Shown: piece after piece, positions 7,187 through 45,993 of the stretch
Layout: each line of letters opens with the position of its first letter
Numbering within the stretch: position 1 is the first letter of the stretch
Origin: Candidatus Spongiisociaceae bacterium
Lineage (GTDB): Bacteria; Actinomycetota; Acidimicrobiia; Spongiisociales; Spongiisociaceae
Assembly: GCA_965219685.1 (NCBI GenBank)
Contig: CBDCOH010000002.1
Span: 1,024,001-1,088,000 of the forward strand
Length of the DNA: 64,000 nucleotides
Direction: 5' to 3'
Notes under the pieces: model-generated
What the model saw: the letters and a program-made list of their open reading frames with translations, nothing else
Databases searched by the model: none
What the model was told of the DNA's origin: nothing
Made by a program: the position numbers and the translations under genes

Positions 7187-7627
7187 ATGAAACGCGCAGT
7201 GATTCCGGCGATGGCCCTCCTGGTCTTCACAGCGTGTGGCGGCGACTCCAGTCCGGACACAACCGCCACGACATCCGCACCCACCACCACTCGGTCGGCG
7301 CCCAGCACGACGCTGCCGCCCACGACCGTGGTGGCGCCCACCGACGGACTTCCGGATGAGTATCCGCCCGAGTTGGTTCCGCCCGGCGTGATATCCGTCT
7401 ACTGGGAGCCCACCGGAGCGGGAACCGACGTCTTCTTCGAAACCTCGGCCGGTTTCGAGGAGCTGATCGACTTCTACACCAATGCCCTGGAGCCGCCGCT
7501 GGATGTGCGGACGGAAGACGGAGTGGACCGGGCCATCTGGGTCTACAAGCCGGGCGTGGAGCACATCACGGTGATCCTGGAGTCAGACTCGGAAGGCATC
7601 AGCCTCAAGGTATCGGGCCTGTTTTGA
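7187..7627 (+). CDS. Hypothetical lipoprotein
   Basis: GGAGG RBS, MKR...FTAC lipobox, Thr/Pro linker. Confidence 0.8.
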   Translation: MKRAVIPAMALLVFTACGGDSSPDTTATTSAPTTTRSAPSTTLPPTTVVAPTDGLPDEYPPELVPPGVISVYWEPTGAGTDVFFETSAGFEELIDFYTNALEPPLDVRTEDGVDRAIWVYKPGVEHITVILESDSEGISLKVSGLF

Positions 7628-7628
7628 G

Positions 7629-7668
7629 TGGTGAATGGTGAATGGTGAATGGTGAATGGTGAATGGTG
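7629..7668 (+). repeat. Heptamer tandem array (TGGTGAA)~5.7 directly after a stop codon
   Basis: Direct reading of sequence. Confidence 0.97.
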
Positions 7669-10311: not shown

Positions 10312-10402
10312 GGAACGGTCAGTGGTCAGTGGACGACGATCCTGTCACCATTCACCATTCACCATTCACCATTCACCATTCACCATTCACCATTCACCAT
10401 TC
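10312..10402 (-). repeat. Heptamer array (TGGTGAA)~8 after the livF stop, 12-nt spacer, then counter-oriented CCACTGA/CCGTTCC units
   Basis: + strand ggaacgg tcagtgg tcagtgg ... (ttcacca)n at 10345..10402. Confidence 0.92.
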
Positions 10403-13020: not shown

Positions 13021-15207
13021 TCATGTCGCGGTCGCGTCCACGGGCCGGAGGCCTTTGAAGAGGCCCTGGGGCCGGACCACCAGCGCAACGACGAGCAGCA
13101 CGAACGAAGCCACGACCGCCAGGTTTGTGCCTATCTGGGGGATGTAGAGGGCCAGTCCCGCCTCGACGAGGCCGAGCACCATGGCGCCGCCGAGGGCGCC
13201 CCTGACCGAGCCGAGTCCCGCCATGGCGGTTATGGCGAAGGCCTTGAGCGTCAGGGGCGGACCCTGGAAGGGTTGTACAGCCAGCACCGGGCTTATGAGA
13301 GCACCGGCCACGCCGGTGATGCCGATGCAGATGGCGAACGTCGCCGCGTATACCTTGGCGACGTCGATGCCGACGATCCGTGCCGCCTCCCGGTTCTGGG
13401 CGGCGGCCCGGATACTCTTCCCCAGCCTGCTCCGAGAAAGGAACAGGCTCAGGCCACCCGCCACCGCCAGCGCCACGACCAGGATCCAGAAGCGGGTGAC
13501 GGGCACCGTCACCTCTCCTGCGACGGGCCAGACGCCGTCGAGGACCGTGTCGGCACGCCGGAAGTCCGCCGAGAACACAACCTTCATGACGTTCTGCAGG
13601 ATGATCGCCACCGCGAACATGACTAGCAGCGAGACGAGGTGGGGCCGGTCGATCACGCGGTTGACGAGCAGGCGTTGCGTCCCGAAACCGAGCAGCATCA
13701 TCAGCAGGAACACCGCGGGGACGGTCACGAACGGGTCCACTCCCCAGACGTCGTTGGCGAGCCAGGCCATGTAGGCGCCGATCATCACGAACTCGCCGTG
13801 GGCGAAGTTGATGACCCCCATCACCCCCCAGATGATCGAGAATCCCAGCACGAGAAGGGTGTACATACCGCCGAGGGCGATGCCGTTGACGAGCATCTGC
13901 GCGGCCTTCTTGCCGGTGGAGGCTGGCCCTCCCCCGCTGGAACCGGCAAGGGGATAGATCAGATCGGCTACTGCCGCCTCGTCGGGCGCCACCACTCGGA
14001 TCAGCCCGTCCTGCACCTGGACGGTGCCCATCGGCTTGGCCGCGTTGACGCCGCGCCGGTCGAACGAGATAGGCCCGTAGAACGTGTCTTTCTCCAGTGC
14101 GTAGAGGGCTTCGCGGACCGCGTCGGTGTCGGTGGTCCCGGCGGTCTCGATAGCCAGGTGAAGCGCGAGGGCCGAGGCAGTGGCGCTGGCGGCCTGGTAC
14201 ACGGGCGGATCTCCCCAGAGGCTCTCGTAGTAGGCCGCGTAGTCCGACGCGGTACCGAAGTACGGTCCCTCGTAGGCCATCACCGGTTCCCACTGGGTGG
14301 GACCCAGGACACCGTCCACGTCCTCGCCGAGTTCGTCGATCAGCTTGGGGTTGGACGGTCCCACCGTGATGAGCATCCCGTCCGGAGCGAATCCGAGTTC
14401 CTTGGCTGCGTTGACGAACAGGACCGCATCGTTGTAGTGGCCGCCGCCCACGAAGATGTCGGGGTCCAGGTCGCGGAACTTGGTCATGATCGCCGAGGCA
14501 TCCTGGATGTCCTTGGGGTAGGTCTCCATCGACAAGACCTCGATGCCGGCGGCTTCCATGTGCCGTCGGGCCCCGTTGGCGACCGCGGTTGGGAAGGAGG
14601 TGTCCTCGTAGGCGATCACCGCGGTGCGCGCACCCCGGACAGCTAGGGCCTCGACGGCTGACTTGGTGTAGTCGCTGGCGATGGTGGCTACCAGGAAGAG
14701 GTTGCGGAAGCCGCGCTCGAACATCGTGTCGGAGGTTCCGTTTCCTTCCACCATGATTACGTTGTTGGCCTCGGCGATGGCGCTGGCGCCGGTGGTCAGA
14801 CCGCTCGAGTAGGGGCCGAGCAGGAAGTCGACCCCGTCCTCGTCGATCAGCTTCTGCACCAGGTTGGCAGCCGTGTCGGCGTCGGACTCGTCGTCGTAGT
14901 AGACGATCTCGGCGGCGAACCGGCGGCCGCCGATGTCGATGCCGCCGTACTCCTCGTTGACCCACCGAACCCAGGTGTCGTAGCCCTGGCGGGAGTCCCG
15001 TCCCTCCACGGCGAACTTCCCGGTCTCGCTGAGCGCGGCGCCCAAGCGCACCGTGCCCGCGAAGCCTTGGTCTCCTCCGGCCACGCCCGCGTCGTCAGGC
15101 CTGGTATCAGATTGCCTATCGCTCCCGGCACAACCCACAAGGATCAGCGACAGCACGGCTAACGCGGCCCACCGGCTCAGCATCGGTCCTGGTCGAAATG
15201 AATCCAT
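13021..15207 (-). CDS. Fused LivJ/K-type substrate-binding lipoprotein + LivH-type permease
   Basis: Lipobox LVGC, YDDES, LLGPYSS, then GVINFAHGEFVMIGAY and IRAAAQNREAARIVGI in one ORF. Confidence 0.88.
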   Translation of the reverse strand: MDSFRPGPMLSRWAALAVLSLILVGCAGSDRQSDTRPDDAGVAGGDQGFAGTVRLGAALSETGKFAVEGRDSRQGYDTWVRWVNEEYGGIDIGGRRFAAEIVYYDDESDADTAANLVQKLIDEDGVDFLLGPYSSGLTTGASAIAEANNVIMVEGNGTSDTMFERGFRNLFLVATIASDYTKSAVEALAVRGARTAVIAYEDTSFPTAVANGARRHMEAAGIEVLSMETYPKDIQDASAIMTKFRDLDPDIFVGGGHYNDAVLFVNAAKELGFAPDGMLITVGPSNPKLIDELGEDVDGVLGPTQWEPVMAYEGPYFGTASDYAAYYESLWGDPPVYQAASATASALALHLAIETAGTTDTDAVREALYALEKDTFYGPISFDRRGVNAAKPMGTVQVQDGLIRVVAPDEAAVADLIYPLAGSSGGGPASTGKKAAQMLVNGIALGGMYTLLVLGFSIIWGVMGVINFAHGEFVMIGAYMAWLANDVWGVDPFVTVPAVFLLMMLLGFGTQRLLVNRVIDRPHLVSLLVMFAVAIILQNVMKVVFSADFRRADTVLDGVWPVAGEVTVPVTRFWILVVALAVAGGLSLFLSRSRLGKSIRAAAQNREAARIVGIDVAKVYAATFAICIGITGVAGALISPVLAVQPFQGPPLTLKAFAITAMAGLGSVRGALGGAMVLGLVEAGLALYIPQIGTNLAVVASFVLLVVALVVRPQGLFKGLRPVDATAT

Positions 15208-17139: not shown

Positions 17140-17143
17140 TGAG

Positions 17144-17174
17144 TAGTTCCTAGTTGGTAGTTGGTAGTTGGTAG
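17144..17174 (-). repeat. Heptamer array (CCAACTA)3 GGAACTA between four-helix gene stop and secG start
   Basis: + strand tagttcc (tagttgg)3 tag. Confidence 0.93.
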
Positions 17175-17525
17175 TCAGCGAAGTGCTCGCTTGAGCCCGG
17201 TCAGCATCTTACCAACCTCGTCGCTACAGACCAGGGCATGCTCGATCTCCTCGTCCTTAGCCATTCCCAGACGGACCGCCAGGATCAGAAAGGTTTCGGT
17301 CTCCGCTAGCGATCCGCTTGCGATCCCTAGAAACTGCCGGAACTCCCTGGTACCGCGCCGTGCCGCCCCTTCGGCGATGTTCGCCGCGATCGAGCACGCA
17401 GACCGGCGCACCTGCACCGTCATCCCGTACTCCTCCGAAGATGGGAACCGGGCCGAAAGCTGATACACCATCTCAGCAAGATCGAGCGACTTCCGCCAGA
17501 CCGCCAAATCCTGATAACTACCCAT
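17175..17525 (-). CDS. Four helix bundle protein (23S rRNA IVP family)
   Basis: SYQDLAVWRKS, FPSSEEYGMTVQVRRSACSIAANIAEG, FLGIASGSLAE; TATAGT hexamer 7 nt before ATG. Confidence 0.95.
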   Translation of the reverse strand: MGSYQDLAVWRKSLDLAEMVYQLSARFPSSEEYGMTVQVRRSACSIAANIAEGAARRGTREFRQFLGIASGSLAETETFLILAVRLGMAKDEEIEHALVCSDEVGKMLTGLKRALR

Positions 17526-17562
17526 GTCTGAGACTATAGGCATATGTAGATATTAGTTTGCA

Positions 17563-21522: not shown

Positions 21523-23341
21523 GCAGCGTAGCGTAGAGGTTCTCGGCGACATTCAGCGGTACCACCCGGGCCAGGCGCTCCAGATCGGCGTTCCTCATCT
21601 GCTTCACTGATCCGAACTCGCGGATCAGGGCCTTCTTGCGAGCCGGGCCGATCCCGTAGACGTCATCGAGGATGGAGTCGATCATGCGCTTGCCCCGGAG
21701 TTGGCGGTGGTACATGAGCGCGAAGCGGTGGGCTTCGTCCCTTACCCGCTGCAGGAGGTGAAGCGCCGACTGGTCCCTAGGGATGATGATGGGTTCGGGC
21801 TGTCCCGGTACGTAGACCTCCTCCATCCGCTTGGCCAGGCCTGCCACCGGTATCTGGAGGTCGAAACGGTCGATGACCTCGACGGCGCGCCCGATCTGTC
21901 CGGGCCCGCCGTCGATCAGCACCAGGGAGGGGGGGTAGGCGAACTTCCCCCGTTCGGAGACGGGCTTTTCCAGATCCTGCATGTACGCCGCGAATCGACG
22001 ACGGATCACCTCCTCCATCGAGGAGAAGTCATCCTGGCCCTGGACCGTGCGGATGCGGAATCGCCGGTAGTGGCCCCGGCGCGGGAGCCCGTCCTCGAGA
22101 ACCACCATGGATCCGACCGTGTGGCGCCCTTGGATGGTGGATATGTCGTAGGCCTCTATCCGCAGCGGGGGCTCGGGGAGGGTAAGCACCGTCTGGAGAC
22201 TTCTCAGGTCCTTGGCTCGGGCGTTGTGGTCGGATTGGCGCCGGAGCCGGTGTCGCAGGAACGCATCGGAGGCATTGGTCTTGGCAGTCTGCATGAGCCG
22301 GCGTTTGGCCCCCCGCTGGGGAACCCTGAGCGTCACCCGGGATCCCCGCCGCCTGGACAGCAGATCCGACCAGGGCTCGTCTGCGGGAGGGAGAGCCTCC
22401 ATCAGGATCAGGCGGGGCGGCGGAGAGGATTCGTCGTAAAGATCACGGAGCACCGTTGCCATGATCTGCGCCGGCGTGACGTCCTCGACCTTGTCGATGA
22501 TGGAACCCAGCCGGCCTACGATCCGCCCGCTCCGTATCTTCAGCACCTGCACCGATACTTCGAGGTCGTCTCCTTCAGTGGCGATCAGGTCGAACTCCTC
22601 GGGACGATCGGTCACCACCTCCTGGCGGGCCACCGCCCGGCGGACATCGCGGACCTGGTCCCTGATGCGGGCGGCCCGTTCGTACTCGAGCCGGTCAGAG
22701 GCGGCGAGCATGCGGCGTTCTAGGCGCACCAACAACTCCTCGGCGCTTCCGGTCAGTACCTGGGTGAGGCCGTCCACGTACTCGGCGTAGGTATCCGGAT
22801 CGACGAAACCGACGCACGGCGCCGAGCAGCGTTCGATCTCGTACTCGATGCACGGTCGGTCCTTCAGCTGGTGGCGGCGGAACACGGTGTCCGAGCAGGT
22901 GCGTATTGGTAGGGACTTGAGAAGCAGGTCGAGCGTGTTGCGGATGGCGTAGGCGTGAGCGAAGGGTCCGAAGTACTGAGTGCCCTTCTTCTTGGAGCCG
23001 CGCATGACCCTGGCGCGGGGCCACCGGTCGGAGCGGGTGATGGCCAGGTAGGGGTAGCTCTTGTCGTCCCTAAGCCGGATGTTGAACCGGGGAAGGTGCT
23101 CCTTGATCAGGGAGTACTCGAGAAATAGCGCCGCCACTTCGCTATCCACCACTATCCACTCGACGCGGCTGGAGGATTCGATCATCGCCCGGGTACGCGG
23201 CGCGAGGTCTCTCGAGAAGTAGGACGCCACGCGCTTGCGGAGCGACTTGGCCTTGCCGACGTAGGTCACCTGCCCATAGGTGTCCCGGAACAGGTAGGCG
23301 CCTGGTGCGTCGGGAATCTCGGCTGATGAAGGTCGCTTCAC
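21509..23341 (-). CDS. uvrC: Excinuclease ABC subunit C
   Basis: GIY-YIG (YVGKAKSLRKRV), DDKSYPY, RIEAYDIS, IDGG, RDEAHRFA, HhH. Confidence 0.98.
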   Translation of the reverse strand: MKRPSSAEIPDAPGAYLFRDTYGQVTYVGKAKSLRKRVASYFSRDLAPRTRAMIESSSRVEWIVVDSEVAALFLEYSLIKEHLPRFNIRLRDDKSYPYLAITRSDRWPRARVMRGSKKKGTQYFGPFAHAYAIRNTLDLLLKSLPIRTCSDTVFRRHQLKDRPCIEYEIERCSAPCVGFVDPDTYAEYVDGLTQVLTGSAEELLVRLERRMLAASDRLEYERAARIRDQVRDVRRAVARQEVVTDRPEEFDLIATEGDDLEVSVQVLKIRSGRIVGRLGSIIDKVEDVTPAQIMATVLRDLYDESSPPPRLILMEALPPADEPWSDLLSRRRGSRVTLRVPQRGAKRRLMQTAKTNASDAFLRHRLRRQSDHNARAKDLRSLQTVLTLPEPPLRIEAYDISTIQGRHTVGSMVVLEDGLPRRGHYRRFRIRTVQGQDDFSSMEEVIRRRFAAYMQDLEKPVSERGKFAYPPSLVLIDGGPGQIGRAVEVIDRFDLQIPVAGLAKRMEEVYVPGQPEPIIIPRDQSALHLLQRVRDEAHRFALMYHRQLRGKRMIDSILDDVYGIGPARKKALIREFGSVKQMRNADLERLARVVPLNVAENLYATLHGNS

Positions 23342-23370
23342 GGGGTGGCTCCTGTCACCTGCAAGGCTAG

Positions 23371-23412
23371 TGCCCGTTGTCGGTGGCCCGTTGTGGGTTG
23401 CCGGCTGTCGGA
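23371..23412 (-). repeat. Degenerate heptamer/14-mer array upstream of a uvrC -10-like hexamer
   Basis: + strand tgcccgt tgtcggt ggcccgt tgtgggt tgccggc tgtcgga. Confidence 0.6.
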
Positions 23413-23514
23413 GTGACTCCGGCGACGAGGGGGACTACCTGAAGTGCCGAACCATGCTCGTGGACCCTGCGGAGCGTCTTGAGGGTGTCCTATTCGGGTC
23501 GGGCGCCGGGCCGG

Positions 23515-25599
23515 TCAGCCGAAGGCGCCGAACCATCGCTCGTGGACTTGGCGGTAGAGGCCGCTCTCGATCAGCTCGAGCAAGGCCAGGTTGACTCGCT
23601 CGCGTAGTTCGGGATCCGCCTCGCTGAGCATGAGGGCGTACTGGACCCTCTCGAAGAGCGGTCCCACCGTGGTGATCGCGCCGGCTCCTTCGTGGGCGGT
23701 GTGGAATTGCAGGACCGGGGCGTCGAACACGATGGCTTCGACGTCCCCTTCCTCCAGGAGCCGGTACGCCTCGTCGATGTCGTCGACCAGGACCGGGCCG
23801 ACGCCGACCGCCACCAGATAGGCGTCGCCAGCTGACCCGGAGACTGTGGCCACCCGGTGCCCCGGAAGATCCCCAGGTCCTGATATGTCACCGCGCAGTT
23901 CGTTCACGGCCAGCGACGACGCGATAGAGGCCGTGAAGCTGGCGAAGACCAGGGTGCCCAGCGCGATCCAGACAAGCGCGAAACCCCGACCCAGCCCGCC
24001 TCGCGCAACCTTGTCACCGTACCCGACCGTGCTCATGGTGACCACCGACCAGTAGAAGGAGTCCCATATGCCGCGTCGGTAAGGGACGGCGAAGTCGGGG
24101 TTGTGATGGCGTTCCAGCCACCAGATCAGGTGGGCGGAAACCAGTACGACTATCGCGAACACCACCATCAACCACGGCAGGTCCGACGAGGCGATAGCAC
24201 GGAAGAAGGTCACGATCCGCTGTCCCAGTCCCGGTGAGGCGTGGGTGGGAGCCATCACCGTGAGACCGGTGTCGAGGACCGGCAGCGAGAAGTCCACCCT
24301 CTCCTCCCGGGATCCGGTCACGGCTACGCCTCCCAGTCCCACCTGGGCGATGCCCCGAGTTATGTCGTCCATCTGCTTGGCGACGGTGTCGACCGCGTAG
24401 ATCTCGACCTGCATGCCCAGGTGAGCTGCGATAAGGCGGATGAGCGCCACCTCGAACCCGCTGTAGGCACGGTTCTCGTAGATGACGAAGGGCGGAAGGG
24501 CGCGCGCCGCCACCCGGAGTACGCCTCCCGTAACCGGGGTGGCCTGTTGCTGAGCGGCGAGCACCAGGGCATCGGGGTCGGCCCGGTGTATCCACTCTGA
24601 GACCAGGGCCTCGTTGGCGAGAGCCCAGTCCTCCGCATGGCGACGGAAGTCCTCCGGATCTCCCTCGTCAGCGACCATCAGGGCGTTCTGCGCCGAGATG
24701 TCCTCCATGGGGATCACCACCTGTTCCAGGAGCTTCCGTACGGCGGGGTTGTGCTTCAGGAAGCCGGAGTTCGCCACCGCCCTGATGTCGTTGGGAGGCC
24801 AACCGACCTGGCACGGATCGTTCGCGCATCCGGGAATCCCGGGGATGGAGGTCCGGTCGACGAAGGCTTCCTGGTCAGGTGGGAGGGAGGGGAACGGGGT
24901 TTCCAGCCACACCACATCCCGGCCGGGAACTAGTTCTCCTACCGTCCAGTTGGGGGTCCATGTGTAGTAGAGCACGGGCTCTCCGGCCCGGTGGCGAGCG
25001 ATGGTCTCGGAGATGAGCGGCGAATAGTCCCCCTGGATCTGCTCGATGGTGCCGGATAATCGATAAGTGCTCAGGTGGTGGTCGATGACGTCGGCGCAAG
25101 CCCAGCCGGCGTCGCAGCCGATGAGGTCCGCCTTCCCATTGCCGTCGAGGTCGAACAGGGCTGCCAGTGACGGGTCGGCCAGATCGCCGAGGTTCGTAAT
25201 TCCGTGCTCCGAGGCAGTGGCCGAATCGACGAAGTAACCCTGCAAAGCCCCCGCGTCGACCTGAGTACCCACCGTCTCGACGACTTCCTGCTCGAGTTGA
25301 CGATCGTGGCTCGGGAACCACCCGTTGACCCAGAGGTCGACGTTGCCCGCTGCCACCGAATGGTAGAACTCGTCGTTCTCCATCGTTACCGGACCATCGA
25401 CACGGTACCCGAGGCGTTCGAGAAGAAGCTTGTACACCTCCGCCTGGAACCATCCGGTGTCCCAAGTCGCCCGGGCCATCCGGACCCGCGGATCGTCCGG
25501 CGTCTCGTGATCCGGTTGTCCGGCCCCAGGCCCGGTCCCAACCCACAGGAGCAGAACTGTCACCAGGACTCCCAGAACAGCTAGCGGTGTTCGGCGCAT
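23515..25599 (-). CDS. ProX-type glycine-betaine-binding domain fused to a GluR0-like ligand-gated K+ channel
   Basis: NGWFPSH, GCDAGWAC, YTWTPNW; S1 lobe (PPFV, VTGSREERVDFS), M1, pore TMSTVGYGD, M2 ASFTASIASSL, S2 lobe. Confidence 0.88.
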   Translation of the reverse strand: MRRTPLAVLGVLVTVLLLWVGTGPGAGQPDHETPDDPRVRMARATWDTGWFQAEVYKLLLERLGYRVDGPVTMENDEFYHSVAAGNVDLWVNGWFPSHDRQLEQEVVETVGTQVDAGALQGYFVDSATASEHGITNLGDLADPSLAALFDLDGNGKADLIGCDAGWACADVIDHHLSTYRLSGTIEQIQGDYSPLISETIARHRAGEPVLYYTWTPNWTVGELVPGRDVVWLETPFPSLPPDQEAFVDRTSIPGIPGCANDPCQVGWPPNDIRAVANSGFLKHNPAVRKLLEQVVIPMEDISAQNALMVADEGDPEDFRRHAEDWALANEALVSEWIHRADPDALVLAAQQQATPVTGGVLRVAARALPPFVIYENRAYSGFEVALIRLIAAHLGMQVEIYAVDTVAKQMDDITRGIAQVGLGGVAVTGSREERVDFSLPVLDTGLTVMAPTHASPGLGQRIVTFFRAIASSDLPWLMVVFAIVVLVSAHLIWWLERHHNPDFAVPYRRGIWDSFYWSVVTMSTVGYGDKVARGGLGRGFALVWIALGTLVFASFTASIASSLAVNELRGDISGPGDLPGHRVATVSGSAGDAYLVAVGVGPVLVDDIDEAYRLLEEGDVEAIVFDAPVLQFHTAHEGAGAITTVGPLFERVQYALMLSEADPELRERVNLALLELIESGLYRQVHERWFGAFG

Positions 25600-25816
25600 C
25601 GATTCATCCGGTTAGGGGAGCCGAAGCGTAGCGAGACGGCAGCACATCTGTACGAGAGATAAAGAAAACTGCTCTAAAGATGAAGAAAACGAATAGTTTC
25701 CCGACACCCAAAGCACACTGATATGTAGGGTCACATAACCGGGAGAGGACTGGGTCCGCCCGGTGGCGTCTAGAGAGAGGAGCGATAGATGGTTTGGTAC
25801 GACGTGGGACAACGCC

Positions 25817-27586
25817 ATGGCTGACCACGACCAGGACCTAGACCTCACAAGTATCTCGGAGGCCTATGACGACTGGGAGCGGGACGAAGAACGCCGCCGA
25901 GAGGCAGCCATCCGGGATCGTGGGCACTTTGAGGGTCTTCAGATCGATCCGGACATCGACTTCTATCCCGAGGTAGCCGACCGGGAACCCGGTGACAAGA
26001 ACATCGTCAAGTGGGGATTCGACATCCATCCCCAGGTGACGTTCTACGCTGCAGGCTTCCTGCTGGTCTTCATCGCGGCCACTCTGATCTTCCCTGATGC
26101 AGCGGGCGGCGTGTTCAGCGCCATCCTCAACTTCATCAACGAGAAGGTGGGCTGGCTGTACATAATCTCGTTCAACATCTTTATCGGGGCGGCGCTCTAC
26201 TTCGCCTTGGGCAGGTACGGCAAGATCCGACTAGGCGGTCCGGGGGCCCTTCCGGAGTTCTCCACCGCCGCTTGGTACGCCATGCTGATCTCGGCCGGTC
26301 TCGGAATCGGGCTGATGTTCTGGGGTGTGGCAGAGCCGATCTTCCACCTGACGGCACCGCCTCCCCTGTTCGATGTAGAACCGTTGTCGACGGGCGCAGC
26401 TAGGGCCTCCCTGGCGACCTCCTACCTCCACTGGGGGATCCATGGATGGGCGCTGTACGGCCTGGTAGCCCTCGCATTGGGGTTCTTCGCCTACAACCGG
26501 GGATTGCCCCTTACCTTCCGTTCGGTCTTCTACCCGATTCTCGGGCCGAGGATCTACGGCGGATGGGGCAACGCCATCGACATCCTCACCGTTGTGGCCA
26601 CCCTCTTCGGTTTGGCCACCTCGCTGGGATTCGGCGCCTCACAGGCTGCCGCGGGACTGAACAAGGTCTTCGGTGTACCGGATACCCTGTTGACCCAGAT
26701 ACTGCTGATTGCCGGTATCACGGGGCTGGCCACCATCTCGGTGGTGGCGGGCTTGGACGCCGGAGTCAAGAGGCTGAGCGCGCTCAACGTATGGCTGGCC
26801 GCGGCCTTCCTCGTCTTCGTGCTTCTGGTGGGTCCCACCCTGCTGGTCCTCTCGTTGTACGTGGAGAGCATCGGGGTCTACATCCAGATCCTGCCCGAGT
26901 TCTCGTTCTGGAACGCCGCGCTGCTCGACACGCAGTGGCAGCAGTGGTGGACCATCTTCTACTGGGGATGGTGGATCTCCTGGTCCCCCTTCGTCGGTAT
27001 GTTCATCGCGCGAATCTCGAAGGGCCGCTCGGTGCGGGAGATGATCATCGGTGTGATCGTCCTTCCCTGCCTGCTGTGCTTCCTGTGGTTCGCGGTGTTC
27101 GGTGGAGCGGCCATGGATCTCCAGATGCGAGGTACGCTGGACGTGGCCACTGCCGTCAACGAGAACGTGGCGACCGCATTGTTCGTGATGCTGGAGGCCT
27201 TCCCATGGACCTTCTTCGTCTCGATAGTCGGCATCCTGCTGCTGGTCTCCTTCTTCGTCACTTCGTCGGACTCGGGATCGCTGGTGGTGGACCACCTGAC
27301 CTCGGGTGGCAAGCTTGACTCGCCCAAGCCGCAGCGCGTGTTCTGGGCGATCATGGAAGGCTTCGTGGCCATCGTGCTGCTGATCGGAGGCGGCCTGTCG
27401 GCTCTCCAGACGGCTGCCGTGGCTACCGGACTGCCATTCCTCTTCGTGCTCCTGATCATGCTGTGGAGCCTGAAGAAGGCCTTCGACGAGGAGCTCGACC
27501 TGCTCGAGAGCCACTATGACGAGGCCATCTTCCAAGCCCAGCACAGCGGTCTGATCGAGCGACTGGGAAGAGGAGGTGAACAGTGA
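25817..27586 (+). CDS. BCCT family (betaine/choline/carnitine) transporter
   Basis: AGLGIGLMFWG, HWGIHGW, WTIFYWGWWISWSPFVGMFIARISKGR, FFVTSSDS. Confidence 0.96.
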   Translation: MADHDQDLDLTSISEAYDDWERDEERRREAAIRDRGHFEGLQIDPDIDFYPEVADREPGDKNIVKWGFDIHPQVTFYAAGFLLVFIAATLIFPDAAGGVFSAILNFINEKVGWLYIISFNIFIGAALYFALGRYGKIRLGGPGALPEFSTAAWYAMLISAGLGIGLMFWGVAEPIFHLTAPPPLFDVEPLSTGAARASLATSYLHWGIHGWALYGLVALALGFFAYNRGLPLTFRSVFYPILGPRIYGGWGNAIDILTVVATLFGLATSLGFGASQAAAGLNKVFGVPDTLLTQILLIAGITGLATISVVAGLDAGVKRLSALNVWLAAAFLVFVLLVGPTLLVLSLYVESIGVYIQILPEFSFWNAALLDTQWQQWWTIFYWGWWISWSPFVGMFIARISKGRSVREMIIGVIVLPCLLCFLWFAVFGGAAMDLQMRGTLDVATAVNENVATALFVMLEAFPWTFFVSIVGILLLVSFFVTSSDSGSLVVDHLTSGGKLDSPKPQRVFWAIMEGFVAIVLLIGGGLSALQTAAVATGLPFLFVLLIMLWSLKKAFDEELDLLESHYDEAIFQAQHSGLIERLGRGGEQ

Positions 27587-28524
27587 TCAAGAGATCGAGC
27601 ACACTGATCGCCGCTCTAGCGGCTTTCGTGCTGATGCTTTCGGCGTGCGGCGTGCAGGACGAAGGTGGTCCCGTGTCCATGGCCCGGGCGAACTGGAGTT
27701 CCGGCTACATGCAGGCTGCCATCTACGCGCAACTGATCGAGGAGCTCGGGCACGAGGTCACCGATCCGGCGGCCGCGACCCTCAGCCCCTACTCGTTCTA
27801 TCCGGCCCTGGCTGCCGGACAGTACGACCTGTGGGCCAACGGGTGGTTCCCTCTCCACGACATCTACCTCGAGGGAGAGAACGTCACGGGCCAGGCGGTG
27901 GATCTGCCGATCGAAGCGGTTGGATGGCAAGTCGCCGACGGCGCCACTGACGGCCTGATGATCGACAAGGCCACGGCTGACAGCTACGGCATCAACTCGA
28001 TGGACGGCGTAGCCGCCAATGCCGGTCTCTTCGACGGCGACGGCGACGGCAAGGCCGACTTGTTCGGATGCAACGTCGGATGGGGTTGCGAAACCGCCAT
28101 CAACGAGCAGATCGCCGATGAGAGTTGGGGCTCCAGAGTGGAGCAGATCTCAGGCACCTATGACGATCTGGCCGCGGGGGTCGTGGGCAAGGTGAACGCC
28201 GGTGAACCGGCGCTCTTCTACGCCTGGACGCCGAACTGGACCAACACCGTCCTGGTGGCCGGGGACAACGCGGTCTGGCTGCAGTCGGCGGTCAACGACA
28301 TCCGCGCGGTGGCCAACACCGACTTCCTGGACGCAAACCCCGACATTGCCCGCCTTCTCGAGGTGGTAGCGATCCCGCTGAGCGACATCGCCGCTCAGAA
28401 CGCCAAGATGGCGGCAGCCGACGAGTACTCCGAGGCTGATGTCGCGGCCGACGCCGAGGCCTGGATCGCCTCCAACCGCGACAAGGTCGACAGTTGGCTG
28501 GAATCGGCACGAGCCGCCGGCTGA
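27583..28524 (+). CDS. ProX-like glycine betaine substrate-binding lipoprotein
   Basis: Lipobox LSAC, NGWFPLH, GCNVGWGC, YAWTPNW; GTGA overlap with the BCCT stop. Confidence 0.88.
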   Translation: MIKRSSTLIAALAAFVLMLSACGVQDEGGPVSMARANWSSGYMQAAIYAQLIEELGHEVTDPAAATLSPYSFYPALAAGQYDLWANGWFPLHDIYLEGENVTGQAVDLPIEAVGWQVADGATDGLMIDKATADSYGINSMDGVAANAGLFDGDGDGKADLFGCNVGWGCETAINEQIADESWGSRVEQISGTYDDLAAGVVGKVNAGEPALFYAWTPNWTNTVLVAGDNAVWLQSAVNDIRAVANTDFLDANPDIARLLEVVAIPLSDIAAQNAKMAAADEYSEADVAADAEAWIASNRDKVDSWLESARAAG

Positions 28525-29995: not shown

Positions 29996-30027
29996 CCATT
30001 CACCATTCACCATTCACCATTCACCAT
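29996..30027 (-). repeat. Heptamer array (TGAATGG)~4.5 directly after the uvrA stop
   Basis: + strand ccattca x4 ccat. Confidence 0.95.
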
Positions 30028-32844: not shown

Positions 32845-32903
32845 CGTGCCCGGGTGGTTTGCTGGGGGAAGCGGTGGTGGCGACGCCATGGTAGTGGCTG
32901 GTG

Positions 32904-33043
32904 GAATGGTGAATGGTGAATGGTGAATGGTGAATGGTGAATGGTGAATGGTGAATGGTGAATGGTGAATGGTGAATGGTGAATGGTGAATGGTGAATGG
33001 TGAATGGTGAATGGTGAATGGTGAATGGTGAATGGTGAATGGT
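32904..33043 (+). repeat. Perfect heptamer array (GAATGGT)20
   Basis: 140 nt of perfect repeat. Confidence 0.98.
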
Positions 33044-45889: not shown

Positions 45890-45993
45890 GTGAATGGTGA
45901 ATGGTGAATGGTGAATGGTGAATGGTGAATGGTGAATGGTGAATGGTGAATGGTGAATGGTGAATGGTGAATGGTGAATGGTGAATGGTGAAT
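45890..45993 (-). repeat. Heptamer array (TTCACCA)~15 immediately upstream of the uvrB -10-like hexamer
   Basis: + strand (tgaatgg)n; TACTCT at 45884..45889, 6 nt from ATG. Confidence 0.97.

Follow-up and report, generated by a model that had tools for sequence, protein, structure and literature searches.

We analysed a stretch of 64,000 nucleotides, referred to as the window, from Candidatus Spongiisociaceae bacterium (Acidimicrobiia; contig CBDCOH010000002.1, positions 1,024,001 to 1,088,000) and focused on a gene encoding a 694-residue protein in which a betaine-binding domain of the ProX type is joined to a K+ channel of the GluR0 type, hereafter the fusion. The gene is flanked by uvrC and by a gene for a BCCT transporter, which is transcribed divergently from it and overlaps with a gene for a free ProX-like lipoprotein (Table 1). 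Databases label the fusion proteins only 'ProX', and the channel is thereby hidden in the annotation. A promoter scan returned no sigma-70-like sites, with 0.9 expected, and no RNA data set containing the locus was among the matches listed.

Read from its N-terminus, the protein consists of a probable signal peptide, a full ProX domain, an 18-residue linker and the arrangement S1-M1-P-M2-S2, in which S1 and S2 are the halves of a ligand-binding domain (LBD), M1 and M2 are membrane helices and P carries the K+ filter TVGYG. Pfam identifies OpuAC at residues 38-325 (E 7.9e-48), SBP_bac_3 at 362-691 with the membrane segments inserted in it (E 5.4e-23), Ion_trans_2 (PF07885) at 482-563 (E 2.2e-14, 53.5 bits with a cut-off of 22.5) and Lig_chan at 476-579. 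Hydropathy places an N-terminal hydrophobic stretch at 2-27 after basic residues, which makes a signal peptide probable, and membrane segments at about 467-497 and 535-565; no third helix of the M4 type follows S2 by hydropathy, the protein stopping three residues past S2. This S1-M1-pore-M2-S2 order had been claimed by an original prediction made from the sequence alone, and Pfam, hydropathy and the match to the GluR0 core 2pyy described below agree on it. The AlphaFold2 model of the mature protein has a mean per-residue confidence (pLDDT) of 87.8, with all domains confident except for the linker at 346-358.

Table 1. Features of the fusion locus, with positions in the window; residue numbers refer to the 694-residue protein.
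Feature	Position	Strand	Remarks
ProX-GluR0 fusion gene	23515..25599	-	694 aa, no stop inside; one copy in the genome
Probable cleavable signal peptide, residues 1-27	25519..25599	-	basic residues followed by a hydrophobic core; lipobox Cys absent; from sequence and hydropathy
ProX/OpuAC betaine-binding domain (by family), residues 38-340	24580..25488	-	Pfam, NCBIfam, PDB and fold matches; landmarks W94, W166, W214, H98, C162/C168 and, in addition, a hairpin with C258/C263
Flexible linker, residues 341-358	24526..24579	-	AlphaFold2 pLDDT <50
S1 half of the LBD, residues 359-452	24244..24525	-	R431 kept, A426 replaces Ser/Thr
Fusion-specific patch, residues 401-415 (V403, A407, K408, D411, R415)	24355..24399	-	predicted ProX docking site
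M1 helix, about residues 476-497	24109..24174	-	AlphaFold2 model, hydropathy
K+ selectivity filter TVGYG, residues 524-528	24016..24030	-	sequence; Ion_trans_2 match
M2 inner helix, about residues 536-565	23905..23994	-	AlphaFold2 model, hydropathy
S2 half of the LBD, residues 569-691	23527..23895	-	S589 and D626 kept; A590 replaces Thr
163-bp spacer between the divergent fusion and BCCT genes	25600..25762	.	both promoters presumed inside
BCCT transporter gene	25763..27586	+	607 aa; the genome's only BCCT; GXGXG and both aromatic boxes intact
Free ProX-like lipoprotein gene	27583..28524	+	313 aa, LSAC lipobox; overlaps the BCCT stop by 4 nt

The fusion is shared by a whole family of proteins. 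A homologue search yielded 752 proteins among 8000 candidates, and all of the 120 homologues listed carry OpuAC, SBP_bac_3 and Ion_trans_2, cover 90-100% of the query and are 69-99% identical to it, which answers the search for this domain architecture proposed along with the original prediction. Searching the 50% representatives brings in no fewer than 11 further clusters of full-length fusions at 34-50% identity, one of them with two ProX domains, and a sponge metagenome contig from a different study spans 23300-25990 of the window with 40 differences and no gap. An assembly chimera, which had been named as capable of overturning the prediction, or a chance read-through from proX into a channel gene is ruled out by the 120 homologues, the distant clusters and the independent contig, leaving it next to no probability, and support for it was found in none of the data analysed.

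Several of the homologues are from Acidimicrobiia, and a fusion locus of 74% identity lies in a record of Candidatus Spongiisocius variivorans. Among 41 related genomes, 20 contain the fusion (18 intact, 1 frameshifted, 1 split across contig ends); it is found in 19 of 24 other genomes of the family and in none of the 16 genomes of the order's remaining families, and it occurs in 7/301 genomes of a class sample and 5/301 of a phylum sample. Frameshifts, which may reflect either genuine decay or errors of assembly, were seen in L092 (G060), in the pore region, and in L105 (G015), near the C-terminus. In a FastTree analysis the channel parts fall into two unresolved clades (unrooted), and an unrooted IQ-TREE analysis of 50 of the 155 rows places all 20 fusions in one clade of 28 rows together with 8 others (SH-aLRT 95). 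The trees are compatible with a single fusion origin followed by several losses, without proving it.

The N-terminal domain scores 334 bits against the NCBIfam ProX equivalog NF008334 (cut-off 215), and its best PDB sequence match is E. coli ProX with glycine betaine bound (1r9l, E 1.4e-64, 37% identity). The model superimposes on ProX in complex with proline betaine (1r9q) with Z 37.8 and rmsd (root-mean-square deviation) 1.9 over 298 aligned residues, compared to Z scores of 25.5 for OpuAC, 25.0 for DmpX, 24.9 for ChoX and 23.9 for TmoX. The Trp residues in the motifs NGW94FP, GCDAGW166AC and YTW214TP align with 1r9l positions 65, 140 and 188, and H98, C162 and C168 align with positions 69, 136 and 142, residues that are reportedly functional in the ProX ligand site; the full ProX-like domain with its three-Trp box, as claimed earlier, is thus borne out. 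Among 34 non-redundant fusions, W94 is kept in 32, H98 in 29 and W166 in 31, position 214 is Trp in 30 and Phe in the other 4, and the four Cys residues of the domain are present in all 34. Mean pairwise identities of 0.52 for ProX, 0.49 for S1, 0.52 for M1-P-M2 and 0.46 for S2 in these representatives show the ProX part being conserved to the same degree as the pore part. As judged from sequence and model, the fused ProX probably lies outside the membrane and its betaine-type site looks intact. Unlike E. coli ProX, it is fused to a channel, lies outside a proVWX operon and additionally carries a W46/W50 motif and another pair of Cys residues. No ABC permease or ATPase partner gene is found beside the fusion, the nearest ABC permease match being about 17 kb away.

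This ProX subtype is also a mobile module, which we observed joined to VWA, WD40, SBP_bac_3, caspase/PEGA, trypsin, LIVBP, STAND/BTAD and LRR/SLH proteins (P0139, P0144, P0149, P0156, P0159, P0193, P0253, P0266; L007, L008).

For the channel part, the best PDB match is the ligand-binding core of Nostoc GluR0 (2pyy, E 2.7e-35, stretches 361-451 and 569-691). The model aligns with this core over 212 residues (Z 25.6, rmsd 3.5, 37% identity), and in the fold search it also fits LBD-transmembrane structures of AMPA receptors. The Arg of VTGSR, for which a carboxylate-binding position had been claimed, is R431; it lines up with the Arg of 2pyy and is retained in 33/34 fusions, along with Ser/Thr at 589 (34/34) and D626 (28/34). 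Two other positions of the site have changed. Position 426, five residues before the Arg, is Ser or Thr in only 5/34 fusions compared to 109/121 channels lacking ProX, and is Gly or Ala in 23/34; position 590 is Thr in 10/34 fusions compared to Thr/Ser in 97/121 ProX-less channels. The window protein has A426 at the ligand Ser/Thr position and A590 where the S2 motif G-S-T has its Thr, neither of which had been part of the original prediction. By spacing, these positions correspond to T480 and T655 of GluA2, T480 contributing to recognition of the ligand's alpha-amino group. According to the accessible text of PMC12226733, R485 and D705 of GluA2 form ligand salt bridges and T655 favours glutamate. 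Since Ser/Thr at 426 and Thr at 590 are mostly lost, a standard glutamate site is unlikely in most fusions, the window protein included, and glutamate as a second ligand appears doubtful. No aromatic cage is conserved in S1S2 either, position 406 being non-aromatic in 34/34 and position 368 being Leu or Phe. By its sequence, the pore is of the K+ type and coupled to the S1S2 clamshell as in GluR0. The claim of a channel with two ligands is therefore doubtful: the ProX side has an apparently intact betaine site, but a standard glutamate site in S1S2 is improbable.

Some family members deviate in the pore. P0123 and P0134 are fusions lacking the K+ filter, a G-R-E-G-W-G stretch replacing TVGYG, L149:1226-3385 shows another filter variant, and P0123 carries two ProX domains. 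The longest contigs of P0123 and P0134 are equal in length (29437), as are those of P0127 and P0130 (15770), and the two members of such a pair may therefore be tandem paralogues forming heteromers.

We compared the 34 fusions with 118 ProX-less channels on the channel side and with 77 other ProX proteins on the ProX side, 3 channel and 11 ProX rows that represent partial or frameshifted fusions having been left out beforehand. A patch on S1 consisting of Y374, V403, A407, K408, D411 and R415 is conserved only in fusions: K408 occurs in 32/34 fusions and 1% of the ProX-less channels, R415 in 31/34 and 6%, and Y374 in 29/34 and 3%. On the ProX side, P194 is found in 26/34 fusions and 3% of the other ProX proteins. 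The patch, A-K-x-x-D-x-x-x-R, is absent from four channels that branch within the fusion clade and carry no ProX (P0175, P0176, P0192, P0199); position 426 is Ser or Thr in these. The patch and the loss of the amino-acid-site Ser/Thr in most fusions, both derived from these alignments, are the findings that are new in this analysis.

The patch coincides with a predicted docking site. ProX (36-343) and the channel part (358-694) were folded as two chains using an alignment of our own, and the resulting complex scores 0.73, the best of three controls reaching 0.01; the mark that it passes is reached by 116/157 solved complexes and 2/215 mismatched pairs, counts that hold roughly with such an alignment. 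Runs share at least 94% of contacts, with a partner pLDDT of at least 89. The predicted interface comprises S1 residues 367-434, mainly 401-415, together with S2 residues 588 and 606-607 (G588, D606-D607), and on ProX residues 47, 50, 72 and 308-318 of one lobe and 189-204 and 218 of the other, the lobes being assigned from AlphaFold2 secondary structure and general knowledge of solute-binding proteins (SBPs). Among the top predicted pairs are K408-D47, D411-T72, A407-W50 and R415-T72, and the contact reaches the R431 region, i.e. the mouth of the S1S2 cleft. Within the interface lie 6/21 fusion-specific channel positions and 4/12 ProX positions, counts that are not independent of the model as the sequence sets overlap. 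ProX is thus predicted to dock via both lobes on the S1 patch. The complex model supports binding of ProX to the channel without demonstrating it: both chains belong to a single polypeptide, a pass can stem from likeness to solved structures, and the model makes no distinction between docking within a subunit and between subunits.

The original prediction had placed the gene next to betaine uptake genes, and the link to genes of this type is tight. Among the 41 relatives, the BCCT gene is present in exactly the 20 with the fusion, as a single copy that always adjoins it; in the class sample it occurs in 12/301 genomes, all 7 fusion genomes being among them. In all fusion genomes read, the BCCT is next door in 27/27 and the free ProX in 26/27, the trio occurring in divergent, convergent and same-strand layouts. 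As a control, none of 55 loci with a plain GluR0-like channel (9 kb or longer in 42 cases) has a BCCT, these loci coming from a scan of genome contigs with generic channel patterns that captured only 3 fusion loci among 80. In metagenomes, a BCCT is visible at 16/36 full fusion loci, many contigs being short, and at 7 of the 10 loci with 3 kb on both sides. By sequence comparison, the link between fusion and BCCT persists through rearrangement and through BCCT divergence down to 48% identity.

The closest solved relative of the BCCT is TmaT (8zw8, 507 bits), followed by BetT-type transporters (379 and 350), BetP (299) and DddT (239). It keeps GXGXG in transmembrane helix 3 and the positions W146/W151/Y154 and W325/W326/W329, and has Leu at the position of TmaT Met105, where its relatives have Leu, Ile or Met (many Met). 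Unlike BetP, with its long basic K+-sensing tail, it has a short acidic C-terminal tail. The markers for choline (Phe154, Asp108) and dimethylsulfoniopropionate (Phe329) described in the accessible part of PMC11708041 are absent. Because GXGXG and the aromatic boxes are kept and the choline and dimethylsulfoniopropionate markers are missing, the BCCT probably couples the transport of a betaine-like or methylamine substrate to Na+. The free ProX-like lipoprotein is 41% identical to the fused ProX and keeps the three Trp motifs, but has neither the C258/C263 hairpin nor D47/W50; at distant loci the free binding protein belongs to another OpuAC subtype. The occurrence of a BCCT with a free OpuAC-type binding protein and without ABC genes (window 25763-28524) may represent a binding-protein-assisted BCCT; alternatively, the lipoprotein may be an orphan serving ABC permeases elsewhere.

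Distant fusion loci sit among MR_MLE, AFOR, OCD, DAO with ETF, RACo and proVWX-type genes. The genome of the window encodes three MTTB-family methyltransferases, one TrkH and two other Ion_trans_2 proteins, and its remaining proX genes have ABC permease genes next to them. As the distant loci lie among likely catabolic genes and three MTTB-family genes are present, the sensed solute may serve not only as an osmolyte but also as a nutrient. The proposed coupling of osmolyte sensing to K+ flux is therefore better worded as sensing of a solute, possibly a nutrient, than of osmolarity.

Eukaryotic ionotropic glutamate receptors (iGluRs; AMPA, NMDA, delta and plant GLR types) likewise stack two clamshells outside an inverted pore, their amino-terminal domain being of the LIVBP/ANF_receptor type. 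In contrast, the N-terminus of the fusion is OpuAC, as had been claimed, with no ANF_receptor match in a Pfam scan that does detect this family in a LIVBP protein; the fusion moreover keeps the K+ filter, lacks M4 and, judging from the residue lists, would have ProX docked at the cleft mouth and not on top. Two class II clamshells per chain are also found in GlnPQ SBD1-SBD2 (6h30) and in the periplasmic domain of BvgS (4q0c), which feed a transporter or a kinase and differ from the AlphaFold2 model by about 20 A rmsd over both domains. Among the sequence and fold matches listed, no solved structure has a ProX domain together with an LBD of the iGluR type.

GluR0 of Synechocystis PCC 6803 (1iiw) and Nostoc punctiforme (2pyy) shares with the fusion S1-M1-P-M2-S2, TVGYG, the absence of M4 and probably a signal peptide. 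It has no N-terminal domain, in line with the original prediction and with the accessible text of PMC6385376, whereas the window protein has the added ProX domain; further differences are the S1 patch, the BCCT neighbour and the loss in most of the family of the glutamate-site Ser/Thr and Thr. Topology and filter agree with the accessible description of Group 1 prokaryotic glutamate receptor channels (Ger et al. 2010, PMC2950845). Because of the N-terminal domain and the missing glutamate-site residues, the fusion is by its sequence a variant of Group 1 rather than a plain member. The words betaine, ProX and OpuA do not occur in the searchable text of PMC2950845 and four supplements, two picture supplements (likely the tree and domain diagrams) lying outside the search, and a literature search whose reach did not extend to most subscription papers found no description of a ProX-GluR0 fusion. 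The nearest functional analogy is receptors stimulated by SBPs such as CosB/CosT of Halobacterium, which pairs a chemoreceptor for betaine, choline and carnitine with an SBP of the OpuAC family; in such receptors, docking of the liganded SBP on a sensor domain triggers the output (PMC8050422). The fusion would differ in having an ion pore as output and a covalently tethered SBP; 'ion channel' is not a term in the accessible main text of that review.

These data suggest a model according to which the fusion is a tetrameric K+ channel, oriented like GluR0, that would be switched or tuned by its tethered SBP. ProX would dock on the S1 patch with both lobes, touching S2 (G588, D606-D607) and the R431 region; with both lobes involved, docking should differ between open and closed ProX. 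Glycine betaine or proline betaine, once bound, would then alter S1S2 closure and thereby the M2 gate, opening or inhibition both being conceivable, and the S1S2 site would probably still accept a carboxylate such as a small or N-substituted amino acid or act mainly as a relay. We consider the chances even that a betaine-type ligand closes ProX and that its docking on S1S2 gates or modulates the K+ pore. The narrower version, in which a GluR0 clamshell put to new use takes the betaine-closed tethered ProX as its protein ligand, so that a K+ pore working in concert with the BCCT and the free lipoprotein is opened, falls somewhat short of even chances; it would amount to a class of ion channels gated by docking of an SBP. 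The purpose would probably be to match K+ flux to uptake by the BCCT next door, presumably Na+-coupled: K+ could supply the counter-charge for electrogenic uptake or be released as betaine takes its place. Precedents exist in the literature: liganded SBPs stimulate receptors by docking (PMC8050422), and an engineered-in ectoine-binding SBP can gate the GluR0 pore (bioRxiv 2021.01.27.428399). The salt-out response includes K+ export following solute accumulation (PMC5818414).

Several observations weigh against betaine-dependent docking. The AlphaFold2 single-chain model of the mature protein has a predicted template-modelling score (pTM) of 0.57 with the placement of ProX not being confident, and ProX with linker and S1 gives 0.68, about the expectation for ProX alone, in what is a weak test as S1 without S2 is an incomplete lobe. 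Covariation between the domains is underpowered (effective depth about 25) with top pairs at the level of noise, and the D47-K408 signal comes mostly from one clade. The linker is long (16-34 residues across the family), unconserved, variable in length and disordered. ProX is dispensable in some lineages, being half-deleted in P0143 and lost in the nested channels, and the patch is altered in P0125 and P0131. Since D47, W50 and T72 are present in about 40% of other ProX proteins, this ProX face may be kept for docking to transporters. As for the BCCT, 3 of the 10 metagenome loci mentioned above lack it, one genome (L187, G160) has the BCCT and free ProX with no channel within the 17 kb read, and related genomes are non-independent samples. 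A low-GC (37%) lineage (P0125, L109-L112) combines the fusion with an altered patch and Thr at 426, L109 having no BCCT within its 13 kb and a Na+/H+ exchanger with Usp domain upstream; this lineage and P0143 provide a natural control for the docking model.

The long linker would equally suit a fused ProX that is a membrane-anchored capture domain feeding the BCCT or distant ABC permeases, the channel being gated only by an S1S2 ligand. The tight BCCT linkage, the presence of the same ProX type on many unrelated extracellular proteins and the ABC permeases beside the genome's other proX genes are all in keeping with such a role; however, it leaves both the S1 patch, which is gained and lost together with ProX, and the predicted ProX-S1 interface unexplained, and in nearly all fusion genomes read the BCCT gene already has a free ProX lipoprotein gene coupled to it, making this explanation unlikely. 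The conserved interface fits equally well with ProX docking on S1 constitutively for assembly, folding or stability, like the AMPA amino-terminal domain, with betaine hardly affecting gating, and channels without a ProX domain do exist in other lineages. A purely structural role does not account for the strong conservation of the ProX ligand site itself, and the predicted interface employs both ProX lobes, which in SBPs move on ligand binding; we regard it as quite unlikely.

The retained Arg and Asp, the mostly Gly/Ala position 426, the contact that ProX is predicted to make around R431 and the catabolic neighbours at distant loci would also agree with ProX concentrating an N-methylated amino acid and handing it over to S1S2 as the true gating site. 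Candidates are betaine, dimethylglycine, sarcosine and proline betaine, for whose N-methyl groups the lost Ser/Thr hydroxyl would give room; yet S1S2 lacks the conserved aromatic cage looked for above, and such a hand-over seems distinctly improbable.

If docking of a betaine-closed ProX does control the pore, bacteria, without any contribution from eukaryotes and drawing on a different class of binding protein, have equipped the glutamate-receptor scaffold with a regulatory domain at its amino terminus. Allosteric control by such a domain would then have arisen a second, independent time on the iGluR scaffold, and compatible-solute supply would be tied directly to K+ flux. It would offer a mechanism for coupling K+ flux with compatible-solute uptake and, its interface residues being named, a small system in which amino-terminal allostery can be tested, and a betaine-gated channel could double as a biosensor scaffold.

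Elsewhere in the window, positions 13021-15207 (minus strand) encode a 728-residue protein in which a LIVBP-type binding domain (Peripla_BP_6) is fused to a branched-chain amino-acid ABC permease (BPD_transp_2). Tandem arrays of 7 bp with up to 20.6 copies, mostly of one related unit, lie at 32899-33043, 45890-45993, 10345-10402 and 7625-7668, with further arrays at 29996-30027, 17143-17175 and 293-323; the array at 32899, which makes a uvrA-like open reading frame longer on its 5' side, probably does not code for protein. A small open reading frame at 17175-17543 (minus strand) is flanked by short repeats, and we take its product to resemble a four-helix-bundle protein of the intervening-sequence type.

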